This document shows positions 3,250-60,622 of a stretch of DNA of 64,000 bases, in pieces (position 1 is the first letter of the stretch; each line of letters starts with the position of its first letter). The notes below the pieces were generated by a model. It worked only from the letters and a program-made list of their open reading frames with translations. It was not told the origin of the DNA and did no database searches. Origin of the DNA: Eledone cirrhosa (Eukaryota); NCBI GenBank assembly GCA_964016885.1, contig OZ024744.1:70060001-70124000 (forward strand), in the 5' to 3' direction. The position numbers were made by a program, and so were the translations under genes.

Positions 3250-6200
3250 TTCATTATGTGTAGATGTGTGTATGTAATCTACAGCGTGTATAGCTTATAT
3301 GTATGTATGTACCTGTCTAGTGTGTATCTATTTTGTGTATGTATTTCTAGATATATGTGTATCTAATATGTATGTATATATCTAGTGTTTGTGTCTACTT
3401 TGTATATGTATGTCTAGATATATGTGTATTTAATATGTATGTATATATCTAATGTCTGTCTGTGTTTCTATATGTAAGTGTAGTTATGTGTATATAGCTA
3501 ATATGTATGTATATATCTAGTGTCTGTTTGTTTGTGTATATATGTGTAAATATGTGTATATATCTAATATGTATGTATATATCTAATGTCTGTCTGTGTT
3601 TGTGTATATATGTGTATATAGCTAATATGTATGTATATATCTAGTGTCTGTCTGTGTTTGTGTATATATGTGTAAATATGTATATATCTAATATGTATGT
3701 ATATATCTAATGTCTGTCTGTGTTTGTGTATATATGTGTATATAGCTAATATGTATGTATATATCTAGTGTCTGTCTGTGTTTGTGTATATATGTGTATA
3801 TAGCTAATATGTATGTATATATCTAGTGTCTGTCTGTGTTTGTGTATATATGTGTAAATATGTGTATATAGCTAATGTGTATGTATATATCTAGTGTCTC
3901 TGTGTTTGTGTATATATGTGTAAATATGTGTATATAGCTAATATGTATGTATATATCTAGTGTCTGTCTGTGTTTGTGTATATATGTGTAAATATGTGTA
4001 TATAGCTAATGTGTATGTATATATCTAGTGTCTGTTTGTGTTTGTGTGTATATGTGTAAATATGTGTATATAGCTAATATGTATGTGTATATCTAGTGTC
4101 TGTCTGTGTTTGTGTATATATGTGTAAATATGTGTATATATGTGTAAATATGTGTATATAGCTAATATGTAAGTATATATCTAGTGCATGTGTCTATTTT
4201 GTGTGTGTATATGTCTAGTGTCTTTCTGTTTTTATATGTATATATAGATATGTGTATATCTGATATGTATGTATATGTCTAGTGTCAGTTTTGTGCGTAT
4301 ATATGTGTAGACATGACGCAGGAGATGGCAGCGATAATGAGGGACAGAGACCGCTGGAGAGAGCTCGTCCATGGGTATCGGGAATTTTACCCGCCCTAGA
4401 TAGATATGTGTAGATATGTCTGTATCTAATATGTATGTATATATCTAGTGCCTGTCTGTGTTTGTGTATGTATATCTAGTGTATAACTCTGTTTTGAGTA
4501 TGTGTGTTGATGTGTGTGTATATCTAATATGTATGTATATATCTAGTGTCTGTCTGTGTTTATGTATATATGTGTATATATCTAATATGTATATATCTAG
4601 TGTCTGTTTGTGTATATATGTGTATATAGCTAATATGTATGTATATATCTAGTGTATGTCTGTGTTTGTGTATATATGTGTAAATATGTGTATATATCTA
4701 ATATGTATGTATATATCTAGTGTTTGTGTATATATGTGTAAACATGTGTATATAGTTAATATGTATGTATATATCTAGTGTCTGTCTGTGTATATATGTG
4801 TAAATATGTATATATCTAATATGTATGTATATATCTAGTGTCTGTCTGTTTGTGTATATATGTGTAAATATGTGTATATATCTAATAAGTATGTATATAT
4901 CTAGTGTCTGTCTGTTTGTGTATATATGTGTAAATATGTGTATATATCTAATAAGTATGTATATATCTAGTGTCTGTCTGTTTGTGTATATATGTGTATA
5001 TAGCTAATATGTATGTATATATCTAGTGTCTGTCTGTGTTTGTGTATATATGTGTAAATATGTATATATCTAATATGTATGTATATAACTAGTGTCTGTC
5101 TGTTTGTGTATATATGTGTAAATATGTGTATATAGCTAATATGTATGTATATATCTAGTGTCTGTCTGTGTATATATGTGTATATAGCTAATGTGTGTGT
5201 ATATATCTAGTGTCTGTCTGTTTGTGTATATATGTGTAAATATGTGTATATAGCTAATGTGTGTGTATATATCTAGTGTCTGTCTGTATATATATGTGTA
5301 AATATGTGTAAATAGCTAATATGTATGTATATATCTAGTGTCTGTCTGTGTTTGTGTATATATGTGTATATACCTAATATGTATGTATATAACTAGTGTC
5401 TGTCTGTTTGTGTAAATATGTGTATATATCTAGTGTCTGTCTGTGTTTATGTATATATGTGTAAATATGTGTATATAGCTAATGTGTGTGTATATATCTA
5501 GTGTCTGTCTGTGTTTATGTATATATGTGTAAATATGTGTATATAGCTAATGTGTGTGTATATATCTAGTGTCTGTCTGTCTGTATATATATGTGTAAAT
5601 ATGTGTATATATCTAATAAGTATGTATATATCTAGTGTCTGTCTGTGTTTGTGTATATATGTGTAAATATGTGTATATATCTAATATGTATGTGTATATC
5701 TAGTGTCTGTCTGTGTTTATGTATATATGTGTAAATATGTATATATCTAATATGTATGTATATATCTAGTGTCTGTCTGTGTATATATGTGTAAATATGT
5801 ATATATCTAATATGTATGTATATATCTAGTGTCTGTCTGTTTGTGTATATATGTGTAAATATGTGTATATATCTAATATGTATGTGTATATCTAGTGTCT
5901 GTCTGTGTTTATGTATATATGTGTAAATATGTATATATCTAGTGTCTGTCTGTGTTTGTGTATATATGTGTAAATATGTATATATCTAATATGTATGTAT
6001 ATAACTAGTGTCTGTCTGTTTGTGTATATATGTGTAAATATGTGTATATAGCTAATATGTATGTATATATCTAGTGTCTGTCTGTGTATATATGTGTATA
6101 TAGCTAATGTGTGTGTATATATCTAGTGTCTGTCTGTTTGTGTATATATGTGTAAATATGTGTATATAGCTAATGTGTGTGTATATATCTAGTGTCTGTC

Positions 6201-8680
6201 TGTCTGTATATATATGTGTAAATATGTGTATATATCTAATAAGTATGTATATATCTAGTGTCTGTCTGTGTTTGTGTATATATGTGTAAATATGTATATA
6301 TCTAATATGTATGTATATATCTAGTGTCTACCTGTGTTTGTGTATATATGTGTAAATATGTGTATATATCTAATATGTATGTGTATATCTAGTGTCTGTC
6401 TGTGTTTATGTATATATGTGTAAATATGTATATATCTAATATGTATGTATATAACTAGTGTCTGTCTGTTTGTGTATATATGTGTAAATATGTGTATATA
6501 GCTAATATGTATGTATATATCTAGTGTCTGTCTGTGTATATATGTGTAAATATGTGTATATATCTAATATGTATGTATATATCTAGTGTCTGTCTGTTTG
6601 TGTATATATGTGTAAATATGTGTATATATCTAATATGTATGTATATATCTAGTGTCTATCTGTTTGTGTATATATGTGTATATATGTGTATATACCTAAT
6701 ATGTATGTATATAACTAGTGCCTGTCTGTTTGTGTAAATATGTGTATATATCTAGTGTCTGTCTGTGTTTATGTATATATGTGTAAATATGTGTATATAG
6801 CTAATGTGTGTGTATATATCTAGTGTCTGTCTGTTTGTGTATATATGTGTAAATATGTGTATATAGCTAATGTGTGTGTATATATCTAGTGTCTGTCTGT
6901 CTGTATATATATATGTGTAAATATGTGTATATAGCTAATATGTATGTATATATCTAGTGTCTGTCTGTGTTTGTGTATATATGTGTATATACCTAATATG
7001 TATGTATATAACTAGTGTCTGTCTGTTTGTGTAAATATGTGTATATATCTAGTGTCTGTCTGTGTTTATGTATATATGTGTAAATATGTGTATATAGCTA
7101 ATGTGTGTGTATATATCTAGTGTCTGTCTGTTTGTGTATATATGTGTAAATATGTGTATATAGCTAATGTGTGTGTATATATCTAGTGTCTGTCTGTCTG
7201 TATATATATATGTGTAAATATGTGTATATAGCTAATATGTATGTATATATCTAGTGTCTGTCTGTGTTTGTGTATATATGTGTATATACCTAATATGTAT
7301 GTATATAACTAGTGTCTGTCTGTTTGTGTAAATATGTGTATATATCTAGTGTCTGTCTGTGTTTATGTATATATGTGTAAATATGTGTATATATCTAATA
7401 TGTATGTGTATATCTAGTGTCTGTCTGTGTTTGTGTATATATGTGTATATATCTAATATGTATGTATATATCTAGTGTCTGTCTGTTTGTGTATATATGT
7501 GTAAATATGTGTATATATCTAGTGTCTGTCTGTTTGTGTATATATGTGTAAATATGTGTATATATCTAATGTCTGTCTGTGTTTATGTATATATGTGTAA
7601 ATATGTGTATATATCTAGTGTCTGTCTGTTTGTGTATATATGTGTAAATATGTGTATATATCTAATGTCTGTCTGTGTTTATGTATATATGTGTAAATAT
7701 GTGTATATATCTAGTGTCTGTCTGTGTTTGTGTATATATATGTGTAAATATGTGTATATATCTAATAAGTGTGTATATATCTAGTGTCTGTCTATTTTGT
7801 GTATATAAGTGTAAATATGTGTATATATCTAATAAGTATGTATATATCTAGTGTCTGTCTATTTTGTGTATATATGTGTAAATATGTGTATATAGCTAAT
7901 ATGTATGTATATATCTAATGTCTGTCTGTGTTTCTGTATATATGTGTAAATATGTATATATATCTAATATGTATAAATCTATCCAGTGTATATGTCTATT
8001 TTGCGTATGTATGTGTAGATATGTCTGTATCTAATATGTATGTATATATCTAATGTCTGTATATAATATGTATGTATATATCTAGTGTCTTTCTCTGTTT
8101 TGTGTATATGTATGTGTAGATGTGTGTATATATCTAATGTGTATGTATATGTGTCTGTGTCGGTTTTGTGTATGTATGTGTTTATATCTAATATGTATGT
8201 ATATGTCTAGTGTGTGGATCTCTGTTATGTATGTGTAGATATGTGTGTATCTATTTAATATCTATGTATATGTCTAGTGTCTTATATGTATGTATATGTC
8301 TAGTCTATCTGTTTTTGTGTATGCGTAGATATCTGAGTATCTTATATATATATATATTATTAATGAAGTGATTCCGTCGGCAAAATATTAATAAATGAGA
8401 AATATCATAACCAAAGTATATATTTTATTATACACTAGCTAATGTGTATGTATATATCTAGTGTCTGTCTGTGTTTGTGTATATATGTGTAAATATGTGT
8501 ATATAGCTAATATGTATGTGTATATCTAGTGTCTGTCTGTGTTTATGTATATATGTGTAAATGTGTATATAGCTAATATGTATGTATATATCTAGTGCAT
8601 GTGTCTATTTTGTGTGTGTATATGTCTAGTGTCTTTCTGTTTTTATATGTATATATAGATATGTGTATATCTATATATAC
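3250..8680. repeat. ~60-bp-unit minisatellite array built from AT/GT microsatellite-like pieces
   Basis: Dozens of variants of TATGTATGTATATATCTAGTGTCTGTCTGTGTTTGTGTATATATGTGTAAATATGTGTATATA(G/T)CTAA. Confidence 0.95.
4311..4405 (+). mobile_element. 3' end of an RTE-like LINE inserted in the minisatellite
   Basis: Translates MAAIMRDRDRWRELV, followed by a TAGA-repeat tail. Confidence 0.6.
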
Positions 8681-18275: not shown

Positions 18276-18336
18276 TATTTTATCTGACGAAAGCGTACTT
18301 AAATATTAGTACCCTTGAAATACGTTTAATAAAATA
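18276..18336 (+). ncRNA. Type I minimal HHR in a solo pLTR
   Basis: TATTTTAT-CTGACGA-AAG..CTT-GAAA-TACGTT-TA-ATAAAATA. Confidence 0.75.
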
Positions 18337-20496: not shown

Positions 20497-25908
<5,412 letters not shown>

Positions 25909-25910
25909 TT

Positions 25911-25978
<68 letters not shown>

Positions 25979-26494
25979 GTATATATATACACATAGACTA
26001 GAGTATGTGTGTATATATGTGTGTGTCTATACGTGTGTATATAAAGATAAGTTGAGTATAAAAATGAATACACATGAATACATGTGTGTATATATATATG
26101 TATGCATGTGTATATGTATGTAAGTATGAACATGTTACTATGTGAATGTGAGTATATGTATTTTGTAGAGGTGTGCAAATATGTTTGTGTGTGAATGCGT
26201 GGGTGAAAGGATACGTACACTTGAAAGAAAAATTTAAGTCTGAATGTTAATTAAGTGCAAACACAAAACCAACCACGCATATCTTTACTATCTCTAATCC
26301 TTCTATAGATTTAGAAAAATAACCAATAATATTTTCTATAAAAATGTCAAAACAACAGATGGGAATCTAATTACTCACTGCCACCAAAAATTCTCACTGC
26401 TATAAAAAAAAACCACTCCCTCAACTATTCTTCTAACAACTTCACCCCTCCCTCCTAATATTCTCTATAAAAACCAAACAGGTCCTCAGTAATA

Positions 26495-26615: not shown

Positions 26616-26819
26616 ATTCCTTTCAACTAAACTGTATCCATTCAAATCTTTCTATTTTTCTCCGGATTACTTTTGGAACTACAACTGGAACCGTCGAGCA
26701 AACTCTACGTGAGCTGTCAATCTACTGTGTGTAATATTTATATTACAACACAACGGAAAATACTGTATATATACCTCCTGTAAATTCGTGCAACCCACAC
26801 AGCAAATGCAACCACAACA

Positions 26820-29140
26820 ATGGAAAAACACTACCTGGATATGTCACTCAAAAACATACCAACCCAAGGTAAAAAGGAATACTTATTGAGTATGATTAAA
26901 AAAACTAATGAATTCATTCGACGTGTCAGGTGGAAAACGCTCCACTATGATAGAAGCCGTATGAACTCACCATTAGAAAGTGGTGTAAACAACAAATTCG
27001 GTTTTAGAACGTGTAAAAACCCACCCACCAACCCACTATTAGATGCATTTGAGCAGGACCTTATGAACTTAATCCTTAAAATTAAATTCAAAGGACGTAA
27101 CACCAACAACAAATTACAGAAAGATATTAAAAAACTACTGGACGACCTTAAAAACACCAAAGGAATTGTAGTAAAAGCGGACAAAACATCAAACCTGTAT
27201 ACTATGGATTGCACTACATACAACAACTTCATTCGAAAAGAATTACATAAAAAAATATAGAAAAACGAATGAAGTAACTCTTAAGCTCATCAATGATGAG
27301 GCATGCGAAATAGTGAAAAATCTCGGAATCGAAGATAGGACAGGACCACTCTTACCGGCGGTACCCACCTTCAATCTTAAGGACCATAAGGTAAACTTTG
27401 ATAATGACCCTAAAATTAGATTAATCTGCCCCTCTAAATCAGATATAGGTAAAATAAGCAAATATATCTTAGATAGAATCATCCCCCAAATTAAGGCTAA
27501 GGTTAACATTAAACTCTGGGGGAAGACCCAAGAAGCAATAAGATGGTTTAATAGCATTAGCAATAAGAATAAATCTAAGTTTATCCAGTTTGATATCGAT
27601 GAATATTACTCATCGATATCACCTGAAACTTTGAATAGAGCCATTAAGTTTGCTAAGGATAACTCTGACCTTACAAACGATGAAATTAAGATTATATTAG
27701 CTAGGAAAACTATAGTCAAATTTGAGAACAGTTATTGGGTACGTAAAGATAGACCCTCTAACTTTGACATAACAATGGGCTCTAACGATTCGGCGGAAAT
27801 AACTGATACTGTGGGGTTATTTATCGCCTTTAGACTCCAGGAAAAATTCAGCAATCTCCACGGCGGAATATACCGCGACGATGTTCTCCTCCTAGTTAAA
27901 AACCTAAATAACCCAAAACTAGAAAAACTACGCAAAGATATAAGAAAACTACTACTCGAAATAGGACTAATTATAACATATGAATACAACCTTAAAGTAG
28001 TTAACTTCCTGGATGTCACACTCAATTTAAACTCTGGTCTGATTAAACCGTTTCATAAATTGAATGAAAATCTCAAATACGTAAATGTTGGGTCTAACCA
28101 CCCCATCTCTATAATTAAATCTATCCCTAAAAATATTTCCCTTAGAATCTCGGGTCTATCTTCTAACATACAAGTATTTAAGGAACACGCCGAGTACTAC
28201 GATAACGCCCTTAGTAAAGCAGGCTACCTCAACAAAATAGAGTATATAGATGGGAACAATCAAAACACCCAAAATAAATCCCACATAGGTAGATATAATA
28301 ACACAACACCAAACCACACTTACTACCATAGTATGCACACCAGTAAACCAACAAACAAAACTAATAGAAAGCGATGCAAAGAGTACTTATGGTATAACCC
28401 CGAATACAATAGTTCCATTAGTACAAATTTACCAGTACTCTTCTTTAAAATAATTAAGAGACATTTTCCTACATCACACAAATACCACAAAATCCTAAAC
28501 CCTACCACTATAAGACTGTCATACTCTACAACGTTAAACCTTGAACAACACATAAAAAAGATCAATACTAGAAGGTTAAACGAAAACACTAAAAACTTAA
28601 GTACAAAGAACACAAGAAAAAACAGTAGACAATACACTACAGAACATAAATAAACCACACCTAAGTTCGTCCGCAATACTACTCCAGAGAAAACCCAACG
28701 TACACAACTGTAACTGCACCTATCCTGGCAACTGCCCCCTCGGCAATAACTGCCTGGAAAAAAATATTATTTATAAGTGTACCATTAAATCCGGAGGCAA
28801 CGAGTGGTATTACGTGGGATCAACGGCAACATCGTTTAAATCTCGATTATATAGGCATTCTTACTCAATAAAATACCAGAGCCAAAGAAATGTAACAACT
28901 TTAGCAGAAAAAGCTTGGATGCTCAGGGATAGCGATCAAAAGTTTACCCTAAAATGGGAGAAATTAGCTAAAACCCAAAGCTTTTCCAGGAGCCAAAATT
29001 TCTGCAAATTGTGTAATCTTGAGATTTATTACATAATCACACACAAGAAGAAATTGCTGAATAACAGAATTGAACGAACATTATTCTGCCGTCACCGAAC
29101 TAAAACCCTTTGTTCCCACTACAAGCCGAATATTACATAA
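26820..29140 (+). pseudogene. Near full-length PLE ORF (RT + C-terminal GIY-YIG) broken by frameshifts/stops
   Basis: SLKNIP, VKADKT, QFDIDEYYSSI, MGSNDSA, GIYRDD, IIY..YVG, CKLC; pLTR segment 26533-26655 is repeated at 29485-29607. Confidence 0.9.
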
Positions 29141-29489: not shown

Positions 29490-29735
29490 AATGTCTGCAT
29501 AACTAATACTTTGTAGATAGCAGCTGTTTTCAGGTTATGTAACTGTTATAGAAACACGTGTCAATAAATTCCTTTCAACTAAACTGTATCCATTCAAATC
29601 TTTCTATATATATAAGCGCTCATATATTCACCTAGCTTATGCTAACAGAATAACTATGAAGCTTGTTTCCTTCTTTCTACGGTTAGCTCTACTCTTTGTT
29701 GTTTTCCTGTCTCACTCGCTTTACGCGTTTTAATT

Positions 29736-29836
29736 GTCCTAATAACTTAATTTAGTTATTATTGCACTGACGTGAGGTATATGATTTTTAATGCAATGAA
29801 ATATCTATGATCGTCGGCAAATCACTGATGAGGGAC
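29736..29836 (+). ncRNA. Candidate rearranged (pseudoknotted) hammerhead with K-turn, copy A1
   Basis: GGTA-TA|TGATTT ... T-GAAA-TATC ... AAATCA-CTGATGA-G-GGAC; see findings. Confidence 0.65.
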
Positions 29837-30248
29837 TTATTTTATTACATGTTATCCATGTGCTACCAGCAGTATTTTTCTCCCCATTTTATCACATATA
29901 TTTACCTAAACTGCGATTCTGTTTTTTTCTCTCTCTCTCTCTTACTGCTCCCTCATTCTCTCTGTTTCTCCTACTTTCTTTCGCCCCCTCTGTCATGTCA
30001 GTTAACTCTTCCTCACACTTCCACTCACTCACTCACTGTTTCTCCTCTCCTCACTTCACCCCGTTCGCAACGAAAGCAATTTCTCTCTTTCTCACATTGC
30101 ATTCGTTCGCGAAAGGTCTTTTTTCTAAGCGCTCATATATTCACCTAGCTTATGCTAACAGAATAACTATGAAGCTTGTTTCCTTCCTTCTACGGTTAGC
30201 TCTACTCTTTGTTGTTTTCCTGTCTCACGCGCTTTACGCGTTTTAATT

Positions 30249-30349
30249 GTCCTAATAACTTAATTTAGTTATTATTGGACCGACGTGAGGCATATGATTT
30301 TTAATGCAATGAAATATCTATGATCGTCGGCAAATCACTGATGAGGGAC
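30249..30349 (+). ncRNA. Candidate rearranged hammerhead, copy A2 (two helix mismatches)
   Basis: Same motif, with ATTGGA and GGCA substitutions. Confidence 0.6.
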
Positions 30350-30444
30350 TTATTTTATTACATGTTATCCATGTGCTACCAGCAGTATTTTTCTCCCCAT
30401 TTTATCACATATATATATATATATATAATAGTAATAAACGAAAG

Positions 30445-31845: not shown

Positions 31846-34574
31846 CAAAGGTTCTCAACGGGGGGTATATGCACCCCCGGGGGGAGTTTCGGAACTCCGG
31901 GGGGAGGGGGTTCGGAGCAAGGGGCGTTAGGGGGGCGTTTGGAACTTTGGAGGACACTGGAAGGCTGTTTACTTCGGTAAGTTTTATAAGCCATATTTGT
32001 ATGTCTTTTAGACAGCCAGTGTGAATGCATTTGAATGAGCATGCAGATAGCATAACTATGGTCTGATCGCAGCTGTGAGCAGGTGTTCAAGCGTGTCTAG
32101 ACATTAACCGGCAATTGAGATCCTAACAATGGAAAAACCCACAGTCAACTGGGTCAAGGACACTTCGAGCGCAACCAGTTAGAATCTTATCTTTCCTTCA
32201 TCGATAACAATGTATTTCATGTGTGAAATTATTGACTCAACCGTAACGAGTTAATACTATGTAGATCTATTTTATTCCCTATTGTATAAATAATATTACA
32301 AATAAAAAAAGAAAAAAAAACACAGAAGCGGGTAGCACACACATCTAGGACCACATACAACACAATCAGATAATACACACATCTAGGACCACATGCAACA
32401 TATAAGGAGGTAGCACACACATCTAGGAGCACATACAACACACAAGCAGGTAATACTCACATCTAGGACCACATACAACACATAAGCAGGTAATACATAC
32501 ATCTAGGACCACATGTAACACATAAGGAGGTAGCACACACATCTAGGACCACATACAATACACAAGCAGGTAATACACACATTTAGGACCACATACAACA
32601 CATAAGCAGGTAGTACATACATCTAGGACCACATGCAATACATAAGGAGGTAATACAAACATCTAGGACCACATATAACACACAAGCAGGTAATACATAT
32701 AGCTGGGACCACATACAATACATAAGCAGGTAATACAAACATCTAGGACTACATACAACACACAGGAAGGTAATTATTGACTCAACCGTAACGAGTTAAC
32801 ACTATGTAGATCTATTTTATTCTCAATTGGACCAAATACAACACACATTGTATCATGTGCTACCGATGACGCAAGAGCAATGGTCGGCCAGCATAAGGGT
32901 TTCGTCACTCTTCTGAAGAGAGAAAATCTATCTGTATTTGTTGTTCATTGTGTCATTCATCGACAACACTTGGCTGCGAAGAAACTCAGCAAACTGCTGA
33001 GCAGGTCCTTTCAGGTGGCCATTGATGTCATCAATTTTATCAAATGGCATTCCCTCAATAAACGAATTTTCCGGCAACTGTGCCAAGATAATGACGAAGA
33101 ATTCGTCAAGTTGCTCCTTCATAATGAAGTGAGGTGGCTTTCAAAGGGCAAGTGCCTTACTCACTTCTTTGAACTGTTCGACTCTATCATTGAGTTTCTG
33201 CGAGGACGCAACACAGAACTGTACAAGAAAACCCTCGATGAGAGGCAAAACTGCGCCTACCTCACCGACATCGTCGACAAATGTAATAGCGTCATTTTGG
33301 CTTTGCTGGGGAAGAAGATCACCTTGCTTAAAGCAAGGAATGCTGTGAAAACATTCCTGGCCAAATTGAATATCATCGAAAGGAATCTGTGTTGACGGGA
33401 ATTCTATAATTTTCCTAGTGTCGCCAATGTTCAAAACATTTTAAGCGATGACCAACTCCAAATTTATACCGCTCATCTCCATGCGCTACAAGATAACATG
33501 AGAAAACGGTTTGTCGACATTTTGCCGATGGACATCCCAATGGGGATAGCAGATCCCTTCAGAGTTAACGTCGATGATTTGGACGTTATATTTCAGGAAG
33601 AATTCATTGAACTTTAAGCAGATGACATGATCAAAATTAAATTTCCCAAAATAGGTGAACCCCTTTTTTGGATGCAAGAGGAAATTCAGCGTCGATTTCC
33701 ACACCTACATGCATAGGCTAGAGATTTGCTCTGCCTTTTCCAAGCTCATACTTAGTCGAGAGGAGGTTTGGTGCTGTTTCCAGACTGCACAGTAAGGCTC
33801 GCAACCACTACAATGTAATTACATGTGGAGATCTCCGGCTACATCTTACGAAAAATCCAGCCTGACGTCAAAGAGTTAGCTAGACTCCTTGAAGTTCAAG
33901 GGTCCCATTGAAATGAGGTCAAAGTTATAGTAAGTTGATTTATCCGAAAACTTGGATATGCTATTGTTACAAAACAAACTAACAATTTTTTTATTTGTAG
34001 TTGCAGTCTGACTGGACTGGAAACCATCTACACCAATTCAATTACTCATTTGTTGTATATATTTTACCATTTACTAATAAATATACCCTCCCGCTTGGTC
34101 ATGAAAACCCTCTTCCAGGGTCTCTAAGCTCACAAAGCAGAGGGAACATCAAGTTAGATATCAACATTTATTCTGTCCGTTTCATTAAACGGAAAATTGG
34201 AAGCTTTGAAATGATTTAATTGCCACTTTCTTCCAGATAAGAGCACTCTTTGGATAGACAGAGTTGCTCTTGTATAAATGTTCAAAATAGTTGGTATCGC
34301 CTGGTGGGAATATAACAAATTCAACTGGTCCTTATTCATAAAAAAGAACATTTATGTTCCTTTTATTGAAATTTATATATTTCCTTTCAAGGAATGTATT
34401 TATACTCTCAGCTGCCTGCAATGGTATCTTTGGAATATTGTTAATCAATTTTTTAGTAATCTACTGATATCAAAATCAGTAGTATATTGAAAAATGGAAA
34501 AATAGGGTAGGGCGCGTTTCGTGATTTCAAGGGACAAAAGGGGGCGTTTGGCCTAAATGGGTTGAGAACATGTG
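31846..34574 (+). mobile_element. hAT (Charlie-like) DNA transposon, decayed
   Basis: TIRs CAAAGGTTCTCAAC / GTTGAGAACATGTG; 8-bp TSD CTCTAGGG at 31838-31845 and 34575-34582; transposase remnant 32880-33395 with HCVIHRQHLAAK and EVRWLSKG. Confidence 0.9.
32335..32770. repeat. 40-bp minisatellite flanked by a ~50-bp direct repeat (32227-32279 / 32773-32823)
   Basis: About 11 copies of ACATCTAGGACCACATACAACACATAAGCAGGTAATAC. Confidence 0.9.
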
Positions 34575-46834: not shown

Positions 46835-47143
46835 AAGGCTATACATTTCAGACAACACTAAGAGAATTTTAAAATTGACTGTCCAACTACACGTGGGAGA
46901 GAGAAGTCACAGCGTGTTTAAGGGCAGTGAACCAGTGGCCTCTGAGGGACGAACTGCTAGAAAGGGCAGCCCAAAGCCACTCAGAGAAGTGTGCTCAACC
47001 AAACAGAGATAGGAAAGACTGTTATTAGGAGCGAAATATTACGATAAATTAACGGAGGCATAGGCCCTCGCTATTCCCTGTAAATAATGTGCTCAAAGGA
47101 GAAGAGATCCTGAGCTCTTTAAAATACAATATGTTGAAAAGGT

Positions 47144-48729
<1,586 letters not shown>

Positions 48730-51039: not shown

Positions 51040-54000
51040 TACGTTATTAACAAATGGAAACTATATTTATAAAACCATATCTATTTTATTATACATATTT
51101 CAAGGATACCATGTTAAATTATGGTATGCTTTCATCAGACAAAATACAATATATACCAGTTTTATAAATAAATATTGACATACCCTTTCAAAATGCAACC
51201 GTTACTTTTGGAAGACATCAGGGATAGTGGATTTGTTTACTTATATTAGTAAGTCGTTGTGTTACGGAGAAGGAAAAAGACGGAGAGAGAGAGAAAAAAA
51301 CGGAGAGAGAGAAAAAAGCGGAGAGAGAAAGGGAGAAATAAAGAAAGAAAAAGAAAAAAAGAAAAAAGAGAAAAACGAGAGAGAAATATCAAAACACCAG
51401 ACAGAGAGAAAAAATCGAGAGAGAGAAATACAGAGATAGAGAGAGGGGGAGAGAACGAAAACCTTAAGTCATGTCATATTAAGTTAAGTTAACAATTGAG
51501 ATGAAATGAATAAATAAAATTAGAAATATTAATATTCATGAATGGAATATACATATATAATGAGAAATTAATCATTGTTTAACTATGATTAGATATTTAG
51601 TTTAAAAATTGAGATCAATATATTAAAAATTGGAATTTAAACATTAAGAAATCTGTATATTGCTAGAGAAATTACATATCATATAAACACGTACACACAC
51701 GCAAAAATACACATAAATATATATATACACACACTTAGAAAATACACATCATATCTACCCCCGTATATAATATATACATACAAAGCATAAATGATTTTTT
51801 TAAATTAATGTTATACATCCTTTGTGTTATTAAATAAAAATGTTTAATATATATATATAAATATATAAGATTAACTGTCATACATTTATGGCTGTTAATT
51901 ATGTCTATCTGCAATCAAAATTGTATAGGTACACATGTACATGTACACACATAATTCTTACATATACATATATAAATATATAAACATGTGTGTGCATCCT
52001 CAACCAATTGGTAGACACGGGTCACGCATGCATATATACATACAGACATATATTCATAAAAATGCATATAACACATGTATATGTATGTTAATATACACAT
52101 ATACATACATACACGTATAGAGATAAGTATACATCAATATATTACATAGTATAATTGAGTACATAAAATACAAAAGAATTATATTTTGGAAATATAATTA
52201 TATCAATATAACTTAAAAACAAAAGAATTCTAAAATATTAAAATATTAAAATATTTTAAAATATTATAGAATATTTTAAGTTAAAATAATATGTTTAATA
52301 GATTTAGTATAGAAATTTATCTTACGTATATTTTACTCAAGATATTGAAAGGATAAACTTTCGAAAATTATGAGAAGCTATCAGAATAAAAGCAAACCTA
52401 ATAAGAAATAAATAAAATATAAAAAAATATAAAAAATATAAAAAATATAAAAAATAAGAAATAGGAAACATTTTCTCCTTTCAAGAGCTCTCAATATATT
52501 CCTCTGGAATAGTTTATTATATTTATATTTATATTTAGGAAGAAAATTTATTTATACTTGAGTAATTAACCAAAGAAAATGAAAAAGGTGAAGGAATCTA
52601 ATGATTTATCGACAGGTTTCATATATTAACCAAATTACTTAATTAATTATACTACATTTTAAATTTATATTTATATTTAAACGTTGAGTTCAATCTATGT
52701 CTGCAGCAACTGAATAAATTATTCCTTAAATTCAGGGAATTTTTGGTCTTTAATATAAAGAATATTTCCTCTATACAAAGATCGCAATTCTCTGAAGAGG
52801 AATTAAAAGGAGTAGCTTTTGAAATAATATTCCAAATCAGCGAATATTCAACATTATCTCGTTTTAGGTCCCATAATAGGCTAGATAGCGAAGTTGAAGA
52901 TTTTTTGTTTGGATCTGTAAAAGAATTTTTATGATTATTGAAGCGGGATTTAAACTCTGTGGGGGTAGATCCGACATAATTAAATGAATTTAAATTACAA
53001 TTATAAACTACATTTTTAGCTAAGCAATTGCTATTTAACGGACAGTTGGATTTATTTCTACAGTTACAATTATTCGATTGAATATTGCTTGGGTTATTAT
53101 TGGTATTTTGGTTAGGTTTGAAATTTCTATTATTAATTCTATTAATATTTTGCGCTAAATTTTTGGTGGAAGAGTAAGTTAATTTTATAGTATGTCTATT
53201 AAAAATTGAGTAATATCTATGTGTTCTGGGGAAGCGTTTGTCAAGAGCTTTAAAGAATAGTTTAGCAATAGGGGTTTTAATATTTAGTGAGAAGGGAGGA
53301 GCGAACCATACTATGTTCCTAGTTCTATTTCTTTTTCGGCTTTCGGAATTATTGTAATGTTTTCTATTATAGTTGTTAAAATTGTTACCATAGTTAAAAT
53401 TGTTATTATTTTGGTTAGTTTTTATATTATTATTATTATCGATGTATTTAATTTTATTTCTATACCCAGCTCTACCTAACGCTTCGTTGTAATAATGCGC
53501 TTTTTCATCAAATATATTCTTATTAGATGAAATTCTCGAAATTCGTTCTTGTACAGAGTTCACTATAGTATTTTTAACGGATCTGGGGTGATTAGAGTTA
53601 AAATTGACATAATTTAAGTTCTCATTTAGTTTGTGAAATGGATAATGAAGACATGTGTTAAGATTTAGTGTTACATCTAGAAAATTGACTATTTTATGGT
53701 TATTCTCTATTTCTACTTTTAGATTAAGGTAATTAAAAAATTGTATAATTTGTTTTCTTTTTCTATTTAGTTCACAGCTATTATTTTCTATAAGTAAAAG
53801 CATGTCGTCACGATATAAACCTCCGGTTACACCTGGTATTTTCCTATGTAGAGAATTAATTATAAATAGGCCCACAAGGTCCGTGACCTGAGCTGAGTCT
53901 GAAGATTCCATAGTTATGTCGAAATTATTATTTCTATCTGCCCTAGTCCAGAGTTGGTTATTAAATTCTATTAATGTTTTCCGTGCCGATAATATAATGT

Positions 54001-54710
54001 GCATTTCATTGCTAGTTATGTCTGTATGTTTAAATGCGTAAGTTAGTGCCTTATTCAGTAGATTAGGAGTGATAGATGAGTAGTAGTTAGCAATATCCAA
54101 CTGAATAAACTTATTATTATAGTTATATTTAATTTTTTTAAACCAATCGATAACCTCACTAGTTCCTTTCCATAATTTTAAGTAAGATAAATTAGGTAAA
54201 TTCTTAATTTGTGGTATTATTCTGTCTAGAATATTTTTGCTAAGTCTGCCAAGGTCAGATTTAGATGGTGCAATTAATCTGACTGGTAAATCATTTTCGA
54301 AGTTTCTTTTATGATCCTTCATATTAATCTTAGGTTTCCTTGGCATGAAGGGTTGTGTCTTATTTTCAATGTCTAGTTCATGCATTATACAAGAGGCATC
54401 TGTATTCAGTTTTTCAAGGTCGTCTTTATTTGCTACTTTGTATTTCTTCCTTAGTTCCTTTAATATAAGATCGTTATAAATGTCCTTTTGTATTCCGTAA
54501 AGATTATTGGTTTTGTCCGACTTGACTAGAATTTTCTCCGTTTTCTCCAAGCTTTCAATATTATACTTAATATTTCTTAAGTAATCTTGGCCTTTGAAGT
54601 TGTTTTTGAATTTGATGCTTTGGATGATAGATATGATATCATTTTCAAAATCCATTAGTAGTTTGTTGGGTGGGGGGGGGTGATTTTTTTAGATTTGAAG
54701 ATTTTATCCA
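51040..54710 (-). mobile_element. PLE with uninterrupted 667-aa ORF, 3' UTR and pLTR HHR (51082-51146)
   Basis: ORF 52652-54655; minus-strand CTGATGA-AAG..CTT-GAAA-TATGTA-TA-ATAAAATA. Confidence 0.88.
52652..54655 (-). CDS. PLE reverse transcriptase + GIY-YIG endonuclease (N-terminus lost)
   Basis: VKSDKT, QLDIANYYSSI, GLYRDD, NFLDVTL, CNCRNKSNCPLNSNCL, VVY..YVG, CDLC..E. Confidence 0.9.
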   Translation of the reverse strand: MDFENDIISIIQSIKFKNNFKGQDYLRNIKYNIESLEKTEKILVKSDKTNNLYGIQKDIYNDLILKELRKKYKVANKDDLEKLNTDASCIMHELDIENKTQPFMPRKPKINMKDHKRNFENDLPVRLIAPSKSDLGRLSKNILDRIIPQIKNLPNLSYLKLWKGTSEVIDWFKKIKYNYNNKFIQLDIANYYSSITPNLLNKALTYAFKHTDITSNEMHIILSARKTLIEFNNQLWTRADRNNNFDITMESSDSAQVTDLVGLFIINSLHRKIPGVTGGLYRDDMLLLIENNSCELNRKRKQIIQFFNYLNLKVEIENNHKIVNFLDVTLNLNTCLHYPFHKLNENLNYVNFNSNHPRSVKNTIVNSVQERISRISSNKNIFDEKAHYYNEALGRAGYRNKIKYIDNNNNIKTNQNNNNFNYGNNFNNYNRKHYNNSESRKRNRTRNIVWFAPPFSLNIKTPIAKLFFKALDKRFPRTHRYYSIFNRHTIKLTYSSTKNLAQNINRINNRNFKPNQNTNNNPSNIQSNNCNCRNKSNCPLNSNCLAKNVVYNCNLNSFNYVGSTPTEFKSRFNNHKNSFTDPNKKSSTSLSSLLWDLKRDNVEYSLIWNIISKATPFNSSSENCDLCIEEIFFILKTKNSLNLRNNLFSCCRHRLNSTFKYKYKFKM

Positions 54711-56026: not shown

Positions 56027-56085
<59 letters not shown>

Positions 56086-56091
<6 letters not shown>

Positions 56092-56385
56092 AAAGGATAA
56101 CATGGACGGTTGGTTACTCCTTCATTACATTTATTGGTAGGTGACGCGTTTTTCGCCACTGATCACCTCAAGGTTCGATCTGTATCGATCTTACCCAACT
56201 CTATAATCGGCAGCTCGACGGACCCTTTTCTTATACCATTTTAAAGGGTCCGTCAAGCTGCCGATTATAGAGTCGGGTAAGATCGATACAGATCGAACCT
56301 GAGCTGATCAGTGGCGAAACGCGCGTCACCTACCAATAAATGTAATGAAGGAGTAACCAATCGTCCTTGTTATCCTTTCAATATA
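56086..56385. repeat. ~140-bp inverted repeat with HHR-like GAAA-CGCGCG-TC
   Basis: 56086-56227 is the reverse complement of 56243-56385. Confidence 0.85.
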
Positions 56386-56537
56386 TTACACTCTGTATAG
56401 CTCTACACCTCAACACAGAAGTGAACCTAAACATCGAGTGCTCACCCGGGTATATATATATTGTTTATTCCCATCTTTGCGTTGCTTTCATCCTTCTATG
56501 TTGTTTACTTGTCTCACGCGCTATACGCGATTTACGT

Positions 56538-56638
56538 GTCCCAATAGGTTTTTTAGTTATTGCTCGCACCAACCTGAGGTATATGATTTTTAATGCGATG
56601 AAATATCAATGATGGTTGGCAAATCACTGACGAAGGAC
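56538..56638 (+). ncRNA. Candidate rearranged hammerhead with K-turn, copy B1
   Basis: GGTA-TA|TGATTT..T-GAAA-TATC..AAATCA-CTGACGA-A-GGAC. Confidence 0.65.
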
Positions 56639-57062
56639 TATTTTTATCATATGTAACCCATGTGTAACCACGCAGTATTCTTCTTTCTTCTCAATATTTT
56701 ATATATATTTACCTCGGTTGCGTTTGTCTGTTTCTCTCTTACTGCTTCCCCGTTCTCTCTGTTTCTCTCACGTTCTTTCGCCCCCTCTGTCAGTTACACT
56801 TTCTCTCGACTGACCTCTTCCTCGCACTTCCACTCATTCATTCTCTGTTTCTACCCTTCTCACTTCCTCCCGTTTGGCTAGTAGTGGGTTCTCTTCTTGC
56901 TCACATCTCACTCACGTCGGACGGTCTGTATCTTGATCGCTCATGAAATCCACCCATCTTATGCTGACCTGGACTACCATGTTGCTTGTTTATTCCCATC
57001 TTTGCGTTGCTTTCATCCTTCTATGTTGTTTACTTGTCTCACTCGCTTTACGCAATTTACTT

Positions 57063-57164
57063 GTCCCAATAGCTTTTTTTAGTTATTGCTCGCACCAACC
57101 TGAGGTATATGATTTTTAATGCGATGAAATATCAATGATGGTTGGCAAATCACTGAGGAAGGAC
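57063..57164 (+). ncRNA. Candidate rearranged hammerhead with K-turn, copy B2
   Basis: Same motif with CTGAGGA. Confidence 0.65.
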
Positions 57165-57220
57165 TATTTTTATCATATGTAACCCATGTGCAACCACGCA
57201 GTATTCTTCTTTCTTCTCAT

Positions 57221-57292
<72 letters not shown>

Positions 57293-58144: not shown

Positions 58145-60622
58145 ATCTCCATGCTAACGCCAATTACTATAATAACGCGCTTTCTAAAGCCGGTTATCCT
58201 GATAAAATCAAATACAGTAAAGAAACAAATCCTAGAAGATCTTTCAGTAAAATAATTAATCATGATCATTCCAATAACTTTAATAAAAGACCTAGATACA
58301 AAAACATAATCTGGCTCCTTTCTCCATCTCTATTAATAATAATATTCCTAAATTATTCTTTAGTGCCTTAAATAAATGCTTCCCTCCCTCACATATCTAT
58401 AGTAAAATATTTAACAAACACACTATAAAATTTTCTTATTCGACCTCCTCCAACATCTCCAACATTATCTCTAAACACAATAATAAAATACTAAATACTA
58501 AATCTCTTCCTTCCAACACTGAATATCATAATAATAGTAATAGTACTCCCGACGTCATTGTTAACTCTAGGCTAATTTCTGCAAACCCAAATACAACGTC
58601 AAACACAACTTCGTTAAATGTTCTTAATCCCAATCTAAATCAAGAAACTATTATTCCTATCGTAAATAACTTCTCCAATCCAATTCCTCCTATAGATAAC
58701 ACTAGGTCACTTGTTAATAACTCTGTTAATCTCTCTAATCGCAATTGTAATTGCCCTGTTAAAAATAAATGTCCTCTCAACAACCATTGTCTTGAAAAAA
58801 ATTTAATCTATGAATGTAAAGTTATAACTGACACCAATTCCTTTACCTATTTTGGCTCCACTTCCACCTCCTTTAAAGCCCGTCTTTATAATCATCATTC
58901 GTCTTTTAAATACCAACTTAAAAGACCCAACACGGCACTCTCAGAACTCATATGGTCCTTGAAAGACAAAAATATTAACTATAACATCTCTTGGGGGAAG
59001 GTTTGTTCTGCCTCTCTATACTTGAATGCCTCTCTATCCAAAACATGTAATCTCTGTTTATGTGAGAAATTTACCATTATATCTAATTTAGATTCTATAA
59101 TAAATAAACGCACTGACTTGTTTTCTCTCTGCTTGCATAAATTCCACAGAACATTCCATAAAGTATACAGCTAATATCTAATACTTTACCAATTTAAAAT
59201 CCTTTTTCTCAAAGGCACATATATATATATATATATATTTCTTTAAAAATATACCCATCTTTCTACCTTATTTCAATGTTATTTATTATACATTATATAA
59301 TACTAGTTACCCATTCTATATCATTCCTATTTATCACTTCCCTTTCTTCCTTTTTTCCTTTTTTCCTTTTTTCTTTTAATTTCTAACCTCTAATCTGTAC
59401 CTTTTCTTCCTAGATACTTCTCAATTCTCATTATTACTCACCACAATATATCCACTCTTCCTTCTTCCATCCTATCACTGACCATAAAACTTACTATTAC
59501 CCTTTTAAATACTTTATAGTATCACCTTGAAAAATCCTTCGCAAACATAAACATTTTTTTTGACGTTAGATTATTCATCCTCAATTCAATATTTTTTTCT
59601 CCCTTTCATGCTCGTCTAACTTCTACATATTACACATCACAACACATTAAAACAAACTTAAACCCTAACTAATCTCCTTTATTACATTATATTATTACCA
59701 TTAGGAAATACTTCATAAACATACATATTTTGATGTTAAGGTCTTCTCCTTAAACACTATCTCCTTCTTTGCTTTCTGCGCTCATTTGTAAACAAACTAT
59801 TTATATATATTACACATACCTATTACTTTACATAAAAACAAACGTAAACACTAACTAATTCCTCTAAATTCATAATTCATCCACCTCTTCTACTTCTTTT
59901 CACAATATATCCTTAATTACATTACTATTTTTATTTTTAATAATACATATCAACAATTTCTTTTCATCGCACATATTATTAAACCCTTCAATATTCAAAC
60001 CTTAACTTAATATTATTCTTAATACATATTAACAATTTCTTTTCATCGCACATATTATTAAACCCTTCAATATACAAACCTTAATTTAACATTATTCTTA
60101 AATTTTTCTCTTCGTTAATTTTCAAATTCTTTTAATTTATATATTATCTTCCAATGGTTTTTTAACCTCTCTCTGTAAAACAACATATTTTTCTCAGTTA
60201 TAAAAGCTATCTCTCTCTCTCTCTCTATCACCCATCTCTCCTCCTATCTCATCCTTCCTTATTATACTCCTCCCCCTCCATTCTTTACTCTCATCTCCTC
60301 CTCTTTTTCATCCTTTCCAACCCCCCCTCATTGTTTTCCCAATATCACACACCAATCTAAAACTACTTTTCATATGTTGATTTAAAACTCCACTATTCAC
60401 AAGTGTTTTTTAACCTTCATATCATGTCTCCCTATTTTATCTGACGAAAACGCAAACGTCATCGCATGATGATATTTGTTTTTGAAATGCGCATAATAAA
60501 ATACATGTAACTCTTTTAACCATCTTTTGATCTTATATATTATTTACTCCAGTCCTACAAACTGTAGAGTGCTACTTATCCGATATTTGCATTGCTTTAT
60601 TGTACTACAATAAAACTCACCT

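Follow-up and report, generated by a model that had tools for sequence, protein, structure and literature searches.

The 64-kb window analysed here, the whole stretch of 64,000 nucleotides, contains four copies of a motif of about 100 nt in which all catalytic parts of a hammerhead ribozyme are present, in a rearranged, knotted order. A scan of the window with an HMM of the motif family detected these four copies only, two of family A and two of family B. They lie in two elements:

29613..30409, plus strand: family A element, a 513-bp unit and a partial unit between (TA)n tracts, with 26 genome matches
29736..29836, plus strand: ribozyme copy A1, checked base by base, predicted cut after 29781
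30249..30349, plus strand: ribozyme copy A2, predicted cut after 30294, with two private mismatches
56461..57223, plus strand: family B non-coding element, defined by self-alignment, a 526-bp unit and a 5'-truncated partial unit, ending in (TA)n
56538..56638, plus strand: ribozyme copy B1, examined base by base, by covariation and by family-majority pairs
57063..57164, plus strand: ribozyme copy B2, core at 57153-59, GAAA at 57126-29, predicted cut after 57109

The window also holds a second hammerhead family, of canonical type I, whose stem I has 8 bp and whose short stem III is palindrome-like. It is present in many copies per window and is typical of Penelope-like pLTRs. Five partly broken frames encode a Penelope-like RT with a C-terminal GIY-YIG domain; Pfam gave no match for them at E<=0.01, and by their motifs we take them to be Neptune-like.

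1766, 2946, 45400 and 60441, plus strand, and 8963, 45265, 51138 and 58069, minus strand: type I hammerhead copies, with similar sequences at 18284 (plus), 10853 (minus) and 16662 (minus)
24341-26026, minus strand: Penelope-like RT and GIY-YIG frame
26784-29140, plus strand: Penelope-like RT and GIY-YIG frame
47138-47560, plus strand: Penelope-like RT and GIY-YIG frame
52652-54688, minus strand: Penelope-like RT and GIY-YIG frame
58296-59174, plus strand: Penelope-like RT and GIY-YIG frame

Further repeats of the window are a MITE-like fold-back element of 300 bp, 91% self-complementary, which adjoins a (TA)n tract just upstream of the family B element (56084-56386), an AT-rich satellite of 66-68 bp in about 70 copies (3302-8080) and a 40-bp tandem in 11 copies (32319-32774).

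The block order of the motif from 5' to 3' is cleavage site, GAAA and CUGAnGA in all four window copies, which corresponds to the non-circular type SGC. In its 5' half, helix a is followed by hairpin b, helix e, helix f, a kink-turn strand, the 3' strand of stem III with the NUH site, and the 5' strand of stem I. The 3' half begins with a UUAA linker and continues with e', position 11.1, GAAA, the 5' strand of stem III, the kink-turn bulge, f', the 3' strand of stem I, CUGAnGA, position 10.1 and a' (hammerhead numbering of positions). In copy B1 these parts lie at:

56538-41/56635-38, plus strand: helix a
56542-62, plus strand: hairpin b
56564-68/56594-98, plus strand: helix e (stem II)
56569-74/56614-19, plus strand: helix f (I-II helix)
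56578-82/56603-07, plus strand: stem III
56584-89/56621-26, plus strand: stem I
56600-03, plus strand: GAAA
56627-33, plus strand: CUGAnGA
56634/56599, plus strand: pair 10.1-11.1
56583..56584, plus strand: cleavage site after an AUA triplet, predicted by analogy with the hammerhead core

The core of CUGAnGA, GAAA and NUH adjoins stems I and III, and a stem II that closes the tandem G.A pairs is present. The strand needed to complete stem II comes from upstream of the cleavage site, and the stem contains a four-way junction. This upstream strand, e and then f, is tied to the base after CUGAnGA by helix a, usually together with hairpin b. By eye, hairpin b is missing in family F; in families G and M (by eye) and in metagenome lineages, the partner of 11.1 is a base of the upstream strand and not 10.1. 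The motif has the S, G, C order and the I-II helix of type SGC, here helix f, which covaries; it lacks the uninterrupted block C of that type, the strand after the core pairing with upstream helix a. Nor does it have the circular block order without a core pseudoknot that characterises canonical types I to III as well as the Rfam hammerhead families. Rfam searches returned nothing at the gathering threshold in the window; in three loci, hammerhead families were absent at E<=5 and only sub-threshold miRNA, snoRNA and other weak matches appeared.

An earlier note had read the differences between families A and B as compensatory changes that support a rearranged hammerhead, and a base-by-base check of the four copies found such changes in place. 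Every base change that it lists exists, though the strands quoted for family A are a composite of the better halves of A1 and A2. In helix e, the proposed change of TTGCA/TGCAA to TCGCA/TGCGA does convert one T-A into a C-G pair, with TTGCA present in A1 only and a G.G mismatch in A2. Likewise, CCGACG/CGTCGG to CCAACC/GGTTGG in helix f contains two compensated pairs, with CCGACG present in A2 only and a U.G in A1. The other differences are as described: hairpin b changes from AATAACT/AGTTATT to AATAGCT/AGTTATT with a G.U in B2, at 10.1-11.1, family A has a G.U and family B an A-U, and the core heptamer varies at N7 alone across the window copies, with CTGAGGA confined to B2 among the listed B copies. 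Compensation between the families extends to the closing pair of hairpin b, which the earlier note does not list; it likewise passes over the kink-turn and the link to Naiads. Private mismatches had been left unmentioned, namely the G.G of A2 in helix e, a C.A of A2 in stem III and a G.G of B1 in hairpin b. The flanks are more diverged than the motif, as claimed: A and B agree at 86 of 102 positions of the motif (84%) and at 304 of 424 positions of the spacer (72%), versus 55% for a shuffled spacer. The assignment of the plus strand as the RNA agrees with nine G.U against two A.C among the family-majority pairs and with the orientation of the core. The four window copies amount to one comparison of two families, and statistical weight comes from the genome-wide sample.

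The earlier note had named missing covariation of the crossing helices in a wider alignment as grounds to reject its reading. We aligned 30 natural copies of about ten families with MAFFT on sequence only and scored all 6,328 column pairs by a home-made, R-scape-like, tree-aware G-test, and the fold withstood this test: the top seven column pairs were all among the 37 proposed base pairs, each at E<0.05. Four of them lie in helix f, one in stem I, and the others are 10.1-11.1 and the closing pair of hairpin b. Over the 30 copies, 89.4% of the cells of the 37-pair structure pair, against a shuffle mean of 76.5% and 29-46% in slid controls, and both sides have changed at 25 of the 37 pairs. Helices a, e and III showed no individually significant covariation in the 30-copy alignment because they vary little there. 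Helices a and e are backed instead by unrelated lineages in a shuffle test, in which a, e and f together did better than they did with a shuffled upstream strand (at most 7 of 200) for 13 of 17 representatives. All eight metagenome representatives are among these, and their helix sequences mostly bear no relation to those of the window. The four representatives I, K, F and M did not exceed the shuffles on their own.

Across 12 families, the family-majority pairs are standard in 60 of 60 cases for stem III and 71 of 72 for stem I; with family L left out (1-nt offset), the counts are 66 of 66 for helix f and 49 of 55 for helix e. The core letters are invariant or nearly so in the 30 copies. The majority cleavage triplets of the 12 families are AUA, AUC and GUA and never NUG, and GUU and GUC also occur in family G. 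Since two of our patterns fixed both 10.1 and 11.1, this pair was recounted by hand on the first 100 matches of a pattern that leaves both free: it forms in 95 of them (A-U 47, G.U 32, G-C 10, U-A 6). Some amplified subfamilies carry C.A instead, 24 of 170 copies in a pattern-selected sample. With the same loose anchors, stems I and III were found together in none of 120 loci of a viral control versus 55/65, 33/42 and 11/31 in this genome, and no true member occurred among the 120 loose and 2 tight matches in viral contigs. RNAalifold alone recovers helix f only, and minimum free energy folds of the window copies, from a program that cannot model pseudoknots, prefer rival hairpins that bury GAAA. 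We consider it almost certain that the structure is real and that the motif is a hammerhead core in non-circular order. Most probably it functions as a ribozyme.

Stem III and helix f are connected by a kink-turn consensus, which in B1 is located as follows:

56575..56613, plus strand: kink-turn consensus, with the non-bulged strand at 56575-77, a 3-nt bulge at 56608-10 and G-A-U at 56611-13

Among copies of standard spacing, the majority pair 1b.1n is G.A in all 12 families, and 2b.2n is A.G in nine, A.U in two (I, J) and tied in E. Position -1b/-1n is C-G in 11 of the 12, and the majority 3b.3n is never Watson-Crick, being U.U in families A and B and having 3b=C or 3n=G in families C, D and H. 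By the sequence criterion of a 3-nt bulge, G.A, A.G and canonical flanking helices, a kink-turn is present in 12 families and also in the metagenome sequence L541. It is absent from G, M, L444, L450, L502 and L509. Lineages lacking it place a plain bulge or an extra hairpin there, so a bend appears to be general and the kink-turn one way of making it. The consensus matches the standard kink-turn pattern (PMC5061560, PMC4382518): U4, box C/D, Kt-7 and Kt-23 share the 3-nt bulge followed by G.A and A.G, and Kt-23 has the 2n=U variant seen in two families here. Unlike these standard kink-turns, the present one sits inside a small nucleolytic ribozyme, a setting for which our literature search returned no relevant paper. 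The geometry of some SGC ribozymes was raised as a difficulty by Eckert et al. (PMC10085705); to judge from the consensus, a kink-turn bend would bring the helix that continues stem III to the distal ends of stems I and II. The same letters suggest that host 15.5K/SNU13 (L7Ae-type) perhaps binds there.

The published SGC hammerheads, HRIMA-1 and the SGC variants, come from metatranscriptomes only, and none was found in the genome of a known organism (Eckert 2023, PMC10085705). Their S, G, C order and I-II helix recur here, and the SGC order is already known; new are the split stem II, the kink-turn and the setting in an animal genome and in Naiads. In the published form, stem II and the I-II helix are built directly from the strand that follows CUGAnGA, whereas here this role falls to a strand upstream of the site. 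Block C, which PMC10085705 assumes to be uninterruptible, is split here after position 9 or 10.1, and a kink-turn or bulge connects helix f and stem III on both strands, unlike in published SGC ribozymes. Type CSG, with two natural metagenome sequences published (PMC10085705), has the same reverse connectivity as the motif here and another opening point. We infer that CSG, SGC and the form with split stem II are different openings of one circle.

The genome searched has 1,796 contigs and a size of 3.0 Gb. Searching it with a 3'-half pattern that leaves 10.1 and 11.1 free gave 19,068 matches, and the reversed control none. From fetched loci, 331 instances were defined by anchors, of which 305 were assigned to 14 families by signature and 26 remained unassigned; contig C1 is over-represented in this sample, and so are sequences that suit our search patterns. 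The loci L218/L253/L254, L164-166 and L185-186 and other loose matches were kept out of the family counts because helices were missing or no family signature matched. Family B gave 1577 genome candidates at first look, and the 40 that were scored are 96-100% identical over the motif; its copies have a fixed 3' end and a variable 5' end. A long, satellite-like head-to-tail array of 494-495-bp family A units was seen at about 299.75-299.79 Mb of G000:C4 (L041-L049), with the core intact in nearly every unit. The repeat is present in contigs from three runs of one sample, which shows presence only.

The carriers are non-coding tandem repeats in (TA)n with a unit spacing of mostly 490-760 bp. On the 3' side, copies run into (TA)n or (CA)n at one of two ends, short and long, which differ by about 40 nt; the motif lies 10-80 nt from these fixed ends, and all 35 inverted neighbour pairs are divergent. 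Partial tandems, an inverted 5'-truncated copy, a 30-40-bp tail and a microsatellite target are found, as in the insertions of Penelope-like elements (PMC8557442, PMC11167929). The window elements share partial tandems, the inverted 5'-truncated copy, the tail and (TA)n targets with the Naiad clade (PMC8557442), and unlike Naiads encode no protein. The sampled upstream regions contain no common ORF, so the carriers are taken to be non-autonomous. Their spacers showed no similarity to the autonomous elements compared or to a Naiad pLTR of the same genome. Metazoan non-LTR retrozymes (PMC7229834; bioRxiv 10.64898/2026.07.22.740005) are also non-coding tandems with one hammerhead per unit and a link to Penelope-like elements; they have type I hammerheads and RNAs of about 170-400 nt, whereas the units here are 490-760 bp and their hammerhead is non-circular.

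Naiads target (TA)n and were reported to be without canonical hammerheads; eight of them, including octopus and squid ones, are marked 'HHR_half_core' (Craig et al. 2021, PMC8557442). We inspected by eye roughly the final 260 nt of 52 consensi in the supplement of PMC8557442 and found reverse-order hammerheads in 12 of these 3' ends. Two octopus and three Acropora consensi have the full a-b-e-f architecture, one squid consensus shows the core together with clear I, III and f, and the CSG order occurs in six nematode consensi. The other 40 consensi contain no such motif in the stretch read. The likeness of the motif to the octopus Naiad ends, together with the size of the genome, would suit a cephalopod host. 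As side observations, the 3' end of Naiad-1_Movir resembles a twister ribozyme by eye (PMC8557442 File S5), and bivalve and hemichordate Naiad 3' ends have in common another conserved motif, about 60 nt long, which is no hammerhead and could be a different ribozyme.

A pattern scan of metagenomes gave 120 loci and, with two viral loci, 122 matches; stems I and III are present in 86 of the 122, three stem III pairs being imposed by the pattern and most matches belonging to one coral-like family of a single assembly. Contig L450 encodes, in two frames, an N-terminal GIY-YIG, CxC, DKA and RT, the Naiad layout. The ribozyme, a single copy in this contig, follows 48 nt after the stop of the Naiad ORF and has the same architecture as the window copies with unrelated sequence. 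The split-stem-II architecture was also seen, with unrelated sequence, in the metagenome contigs L438, L502, L509, L517, L540 and L541.

In the genome itself, an autonomous Naiad ORF of that layout was not present upstream of the sampled copies. When the genome was searched with the L450 RT (133 of 4,612 candidates scored), its Naiad RT matches proved decayed: 29 of the best 30 contain stops, and the remaining one is open for 191 aa only. Of 20 Naiad remnants, eight (L591, L593, L594, L596, L597, L599, L600 and L608) have a 3' region in common, and the S-G-C-order core in it belongs to a different family. These mostly have U at position 3 and A at position 8, and L608 alone has the usual heptamer. 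C3 and G8 form a tertiary pair in active hammerheads, into which the replacement of C3...G8 by U3...A8 would fit. In the best 30 GIY-YIG matches in the genome, a stop follows the domain at a short distance. A further 20 matches include intact long frames, all of them RT followed by GIY-YIG and thus with a C-terminal endonuclease. Three short patterns for octopus-type Naiad ends gave 0, 0 and 5 matches, with 6 in the control of the last. The motif appears to be the ribozyme thought to be missing from Naiads. The literature that we covered, including passages of PMC13725137 and with most subscription papers and bioRxiv supplements outside this coverage, describes no permuted hammerhead in Naiads, cephalopods or any animal genome.

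We think it likely that the motif self-cleaves, within Penelope-like non-coding tandem repeats, and that it derives from the 3' ribozyme of a Naiad. Five natural SGC ribozymes with the same core, a UUA-like linker and the I-II helix cleaved in vitro (PMC10085705). In the proposed course of events, read-through transcripts of tandem units would fold into the ribozyme, and the kink-turn, perhaps aided by host 15.5K/SNU13, would turn the extension of stem III back toward the ends of stems I and II. Cleavage of the family B RNA after 56583 and 57109 would then release a monomer:

56584..57109, plus strand: predicted 526-nt monomer from double cleavage at the two predicted sites

Four helices would keep the cut halves paired, and this would favour re-ligation or circularisation by RtcB. 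A Penelope-like RT/GIY-YIG protein acting in trans could copy the uncut or circular RNA and insert it into (TA)n, beginning at two internal sites that lie just 3' of the ribozyme and about 40 nt from each other. The protein that moved the young families may be of Neptune/Poseidon type. Breaks at insertion 5' ends show no excess at the predicted cut, with 2 of 47 falling within 3 nt of it (p=0.75), and 119 of 170 copies continue across it, which implies a copied template that is uncut or re-ligated. A hint of a 5'-end pile-up at the cut in a first sample was gone in a sample drawn by 3'-half patterns only.

These 5' ends and the read-through of most copies would also suit a real fold that cuts rarely or not at all and serves as an RNA handle, recognised near the RT start by a Penelope-like or kink-turn-binding host protein, with the hammerhead letters kept for structure. 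The position of the motif 10-80 nt from fixed 3' ends and the tolerance of C.A at 10.1-11.1 point the same way, and hammerhead cleavage was dispensable for insertion of a Poseidon element in vitro (PMC11167929). Against such a handle, the H-not-G rule of the triplet and the full core are kept across cephalopod-like, coral-like and other lineages that share no helix sequence, and the U3...A8 of the Naiad remnants fits a pair of active hammerheads; we therefore regard it as unlikely, and self-cleavage as the better reading.

Cleavage might instead take place only in a dimer or in trans between tandem neighbours, as in minimal Penelope hammerheads, and not in a single knotted monomer. The copies do occur in tandem, the monomer has competing hairpins, and some animal retrozymes cleave as dimers (PMC7229834). 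However, every helix can form within one copy, the L450 contig has one copy only, and single SGC ribozymes cleaved as monomers (PMC10085705). A direct stem II between the C and G blocks would be of 1-2 bp at most, so that swapping of copies does not restore the canonical order. Restriction to dimers is thus quite improbable, and cutting within a single copy is preferred.

There is even less to be said for a box C/D snoRNA-like RNP motif whose hammerhead likeness is incidental. Its kink-turn letters are box C/D-like, with the U.U at 3b.3n in families A and B, and Rfam snR66 matches over the motif below threshold (E=3, 24.4 bits versus a cut-off of 65). The D-like strand, however, precedes the C-like strand, and G, M, L444, L450, L502 and L509 keep the hammerhead core and helices without a kink-turn, which makes this explanation very improbable. 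Chance pairing or inherited palindromes in a young repeat, with no selected RNA structure, has in its favour that many changes are counted more than once in related families and that some samples were drawn with patterns fixing particular letters, but it is largely refuted by the tree-aware test, by the slid controls, by the 0 of 120 in the viral control and by the recurrence of the architecture in unrelated sequences, and retains next to no probability.

Non-circularly permuted hammerheads, formerly environmental sequences without a host or role, are hereby placed in an animal genome, in about 19,000 copies, and tied to a named retrotransposon clade, the Naiads. Their connectivity lies outside the published six-permutation scheme, block C being split by a four-way junction. 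This offers a testable answer to the Naiad puzzle: descriptors of canonical order cannot detect hammerheads in reverse order, and genome surveys of ribozymes and retrozymes that use type I-III descriptors alone would undercount them. A natural kink-turn could place cleavage under the control of a host protein and is a ready design for switchable ribozymes; if gating by 15.5K/SNU13 holds true, the motif would be a natural protein-switched self-cleaving ribozyme. In a wider and tentative view, which we hold possible and less probable than its opposite, non-circularly permuted hammerheads would be ancient and pan-invertebrate in Naiads, with tens of thousands of retrozyme-like offspring, the split-stem-II form in cephalopods and corals and CSG in nematodes, and the cephalopod-like families would be gated by 15.5K/SNU13.
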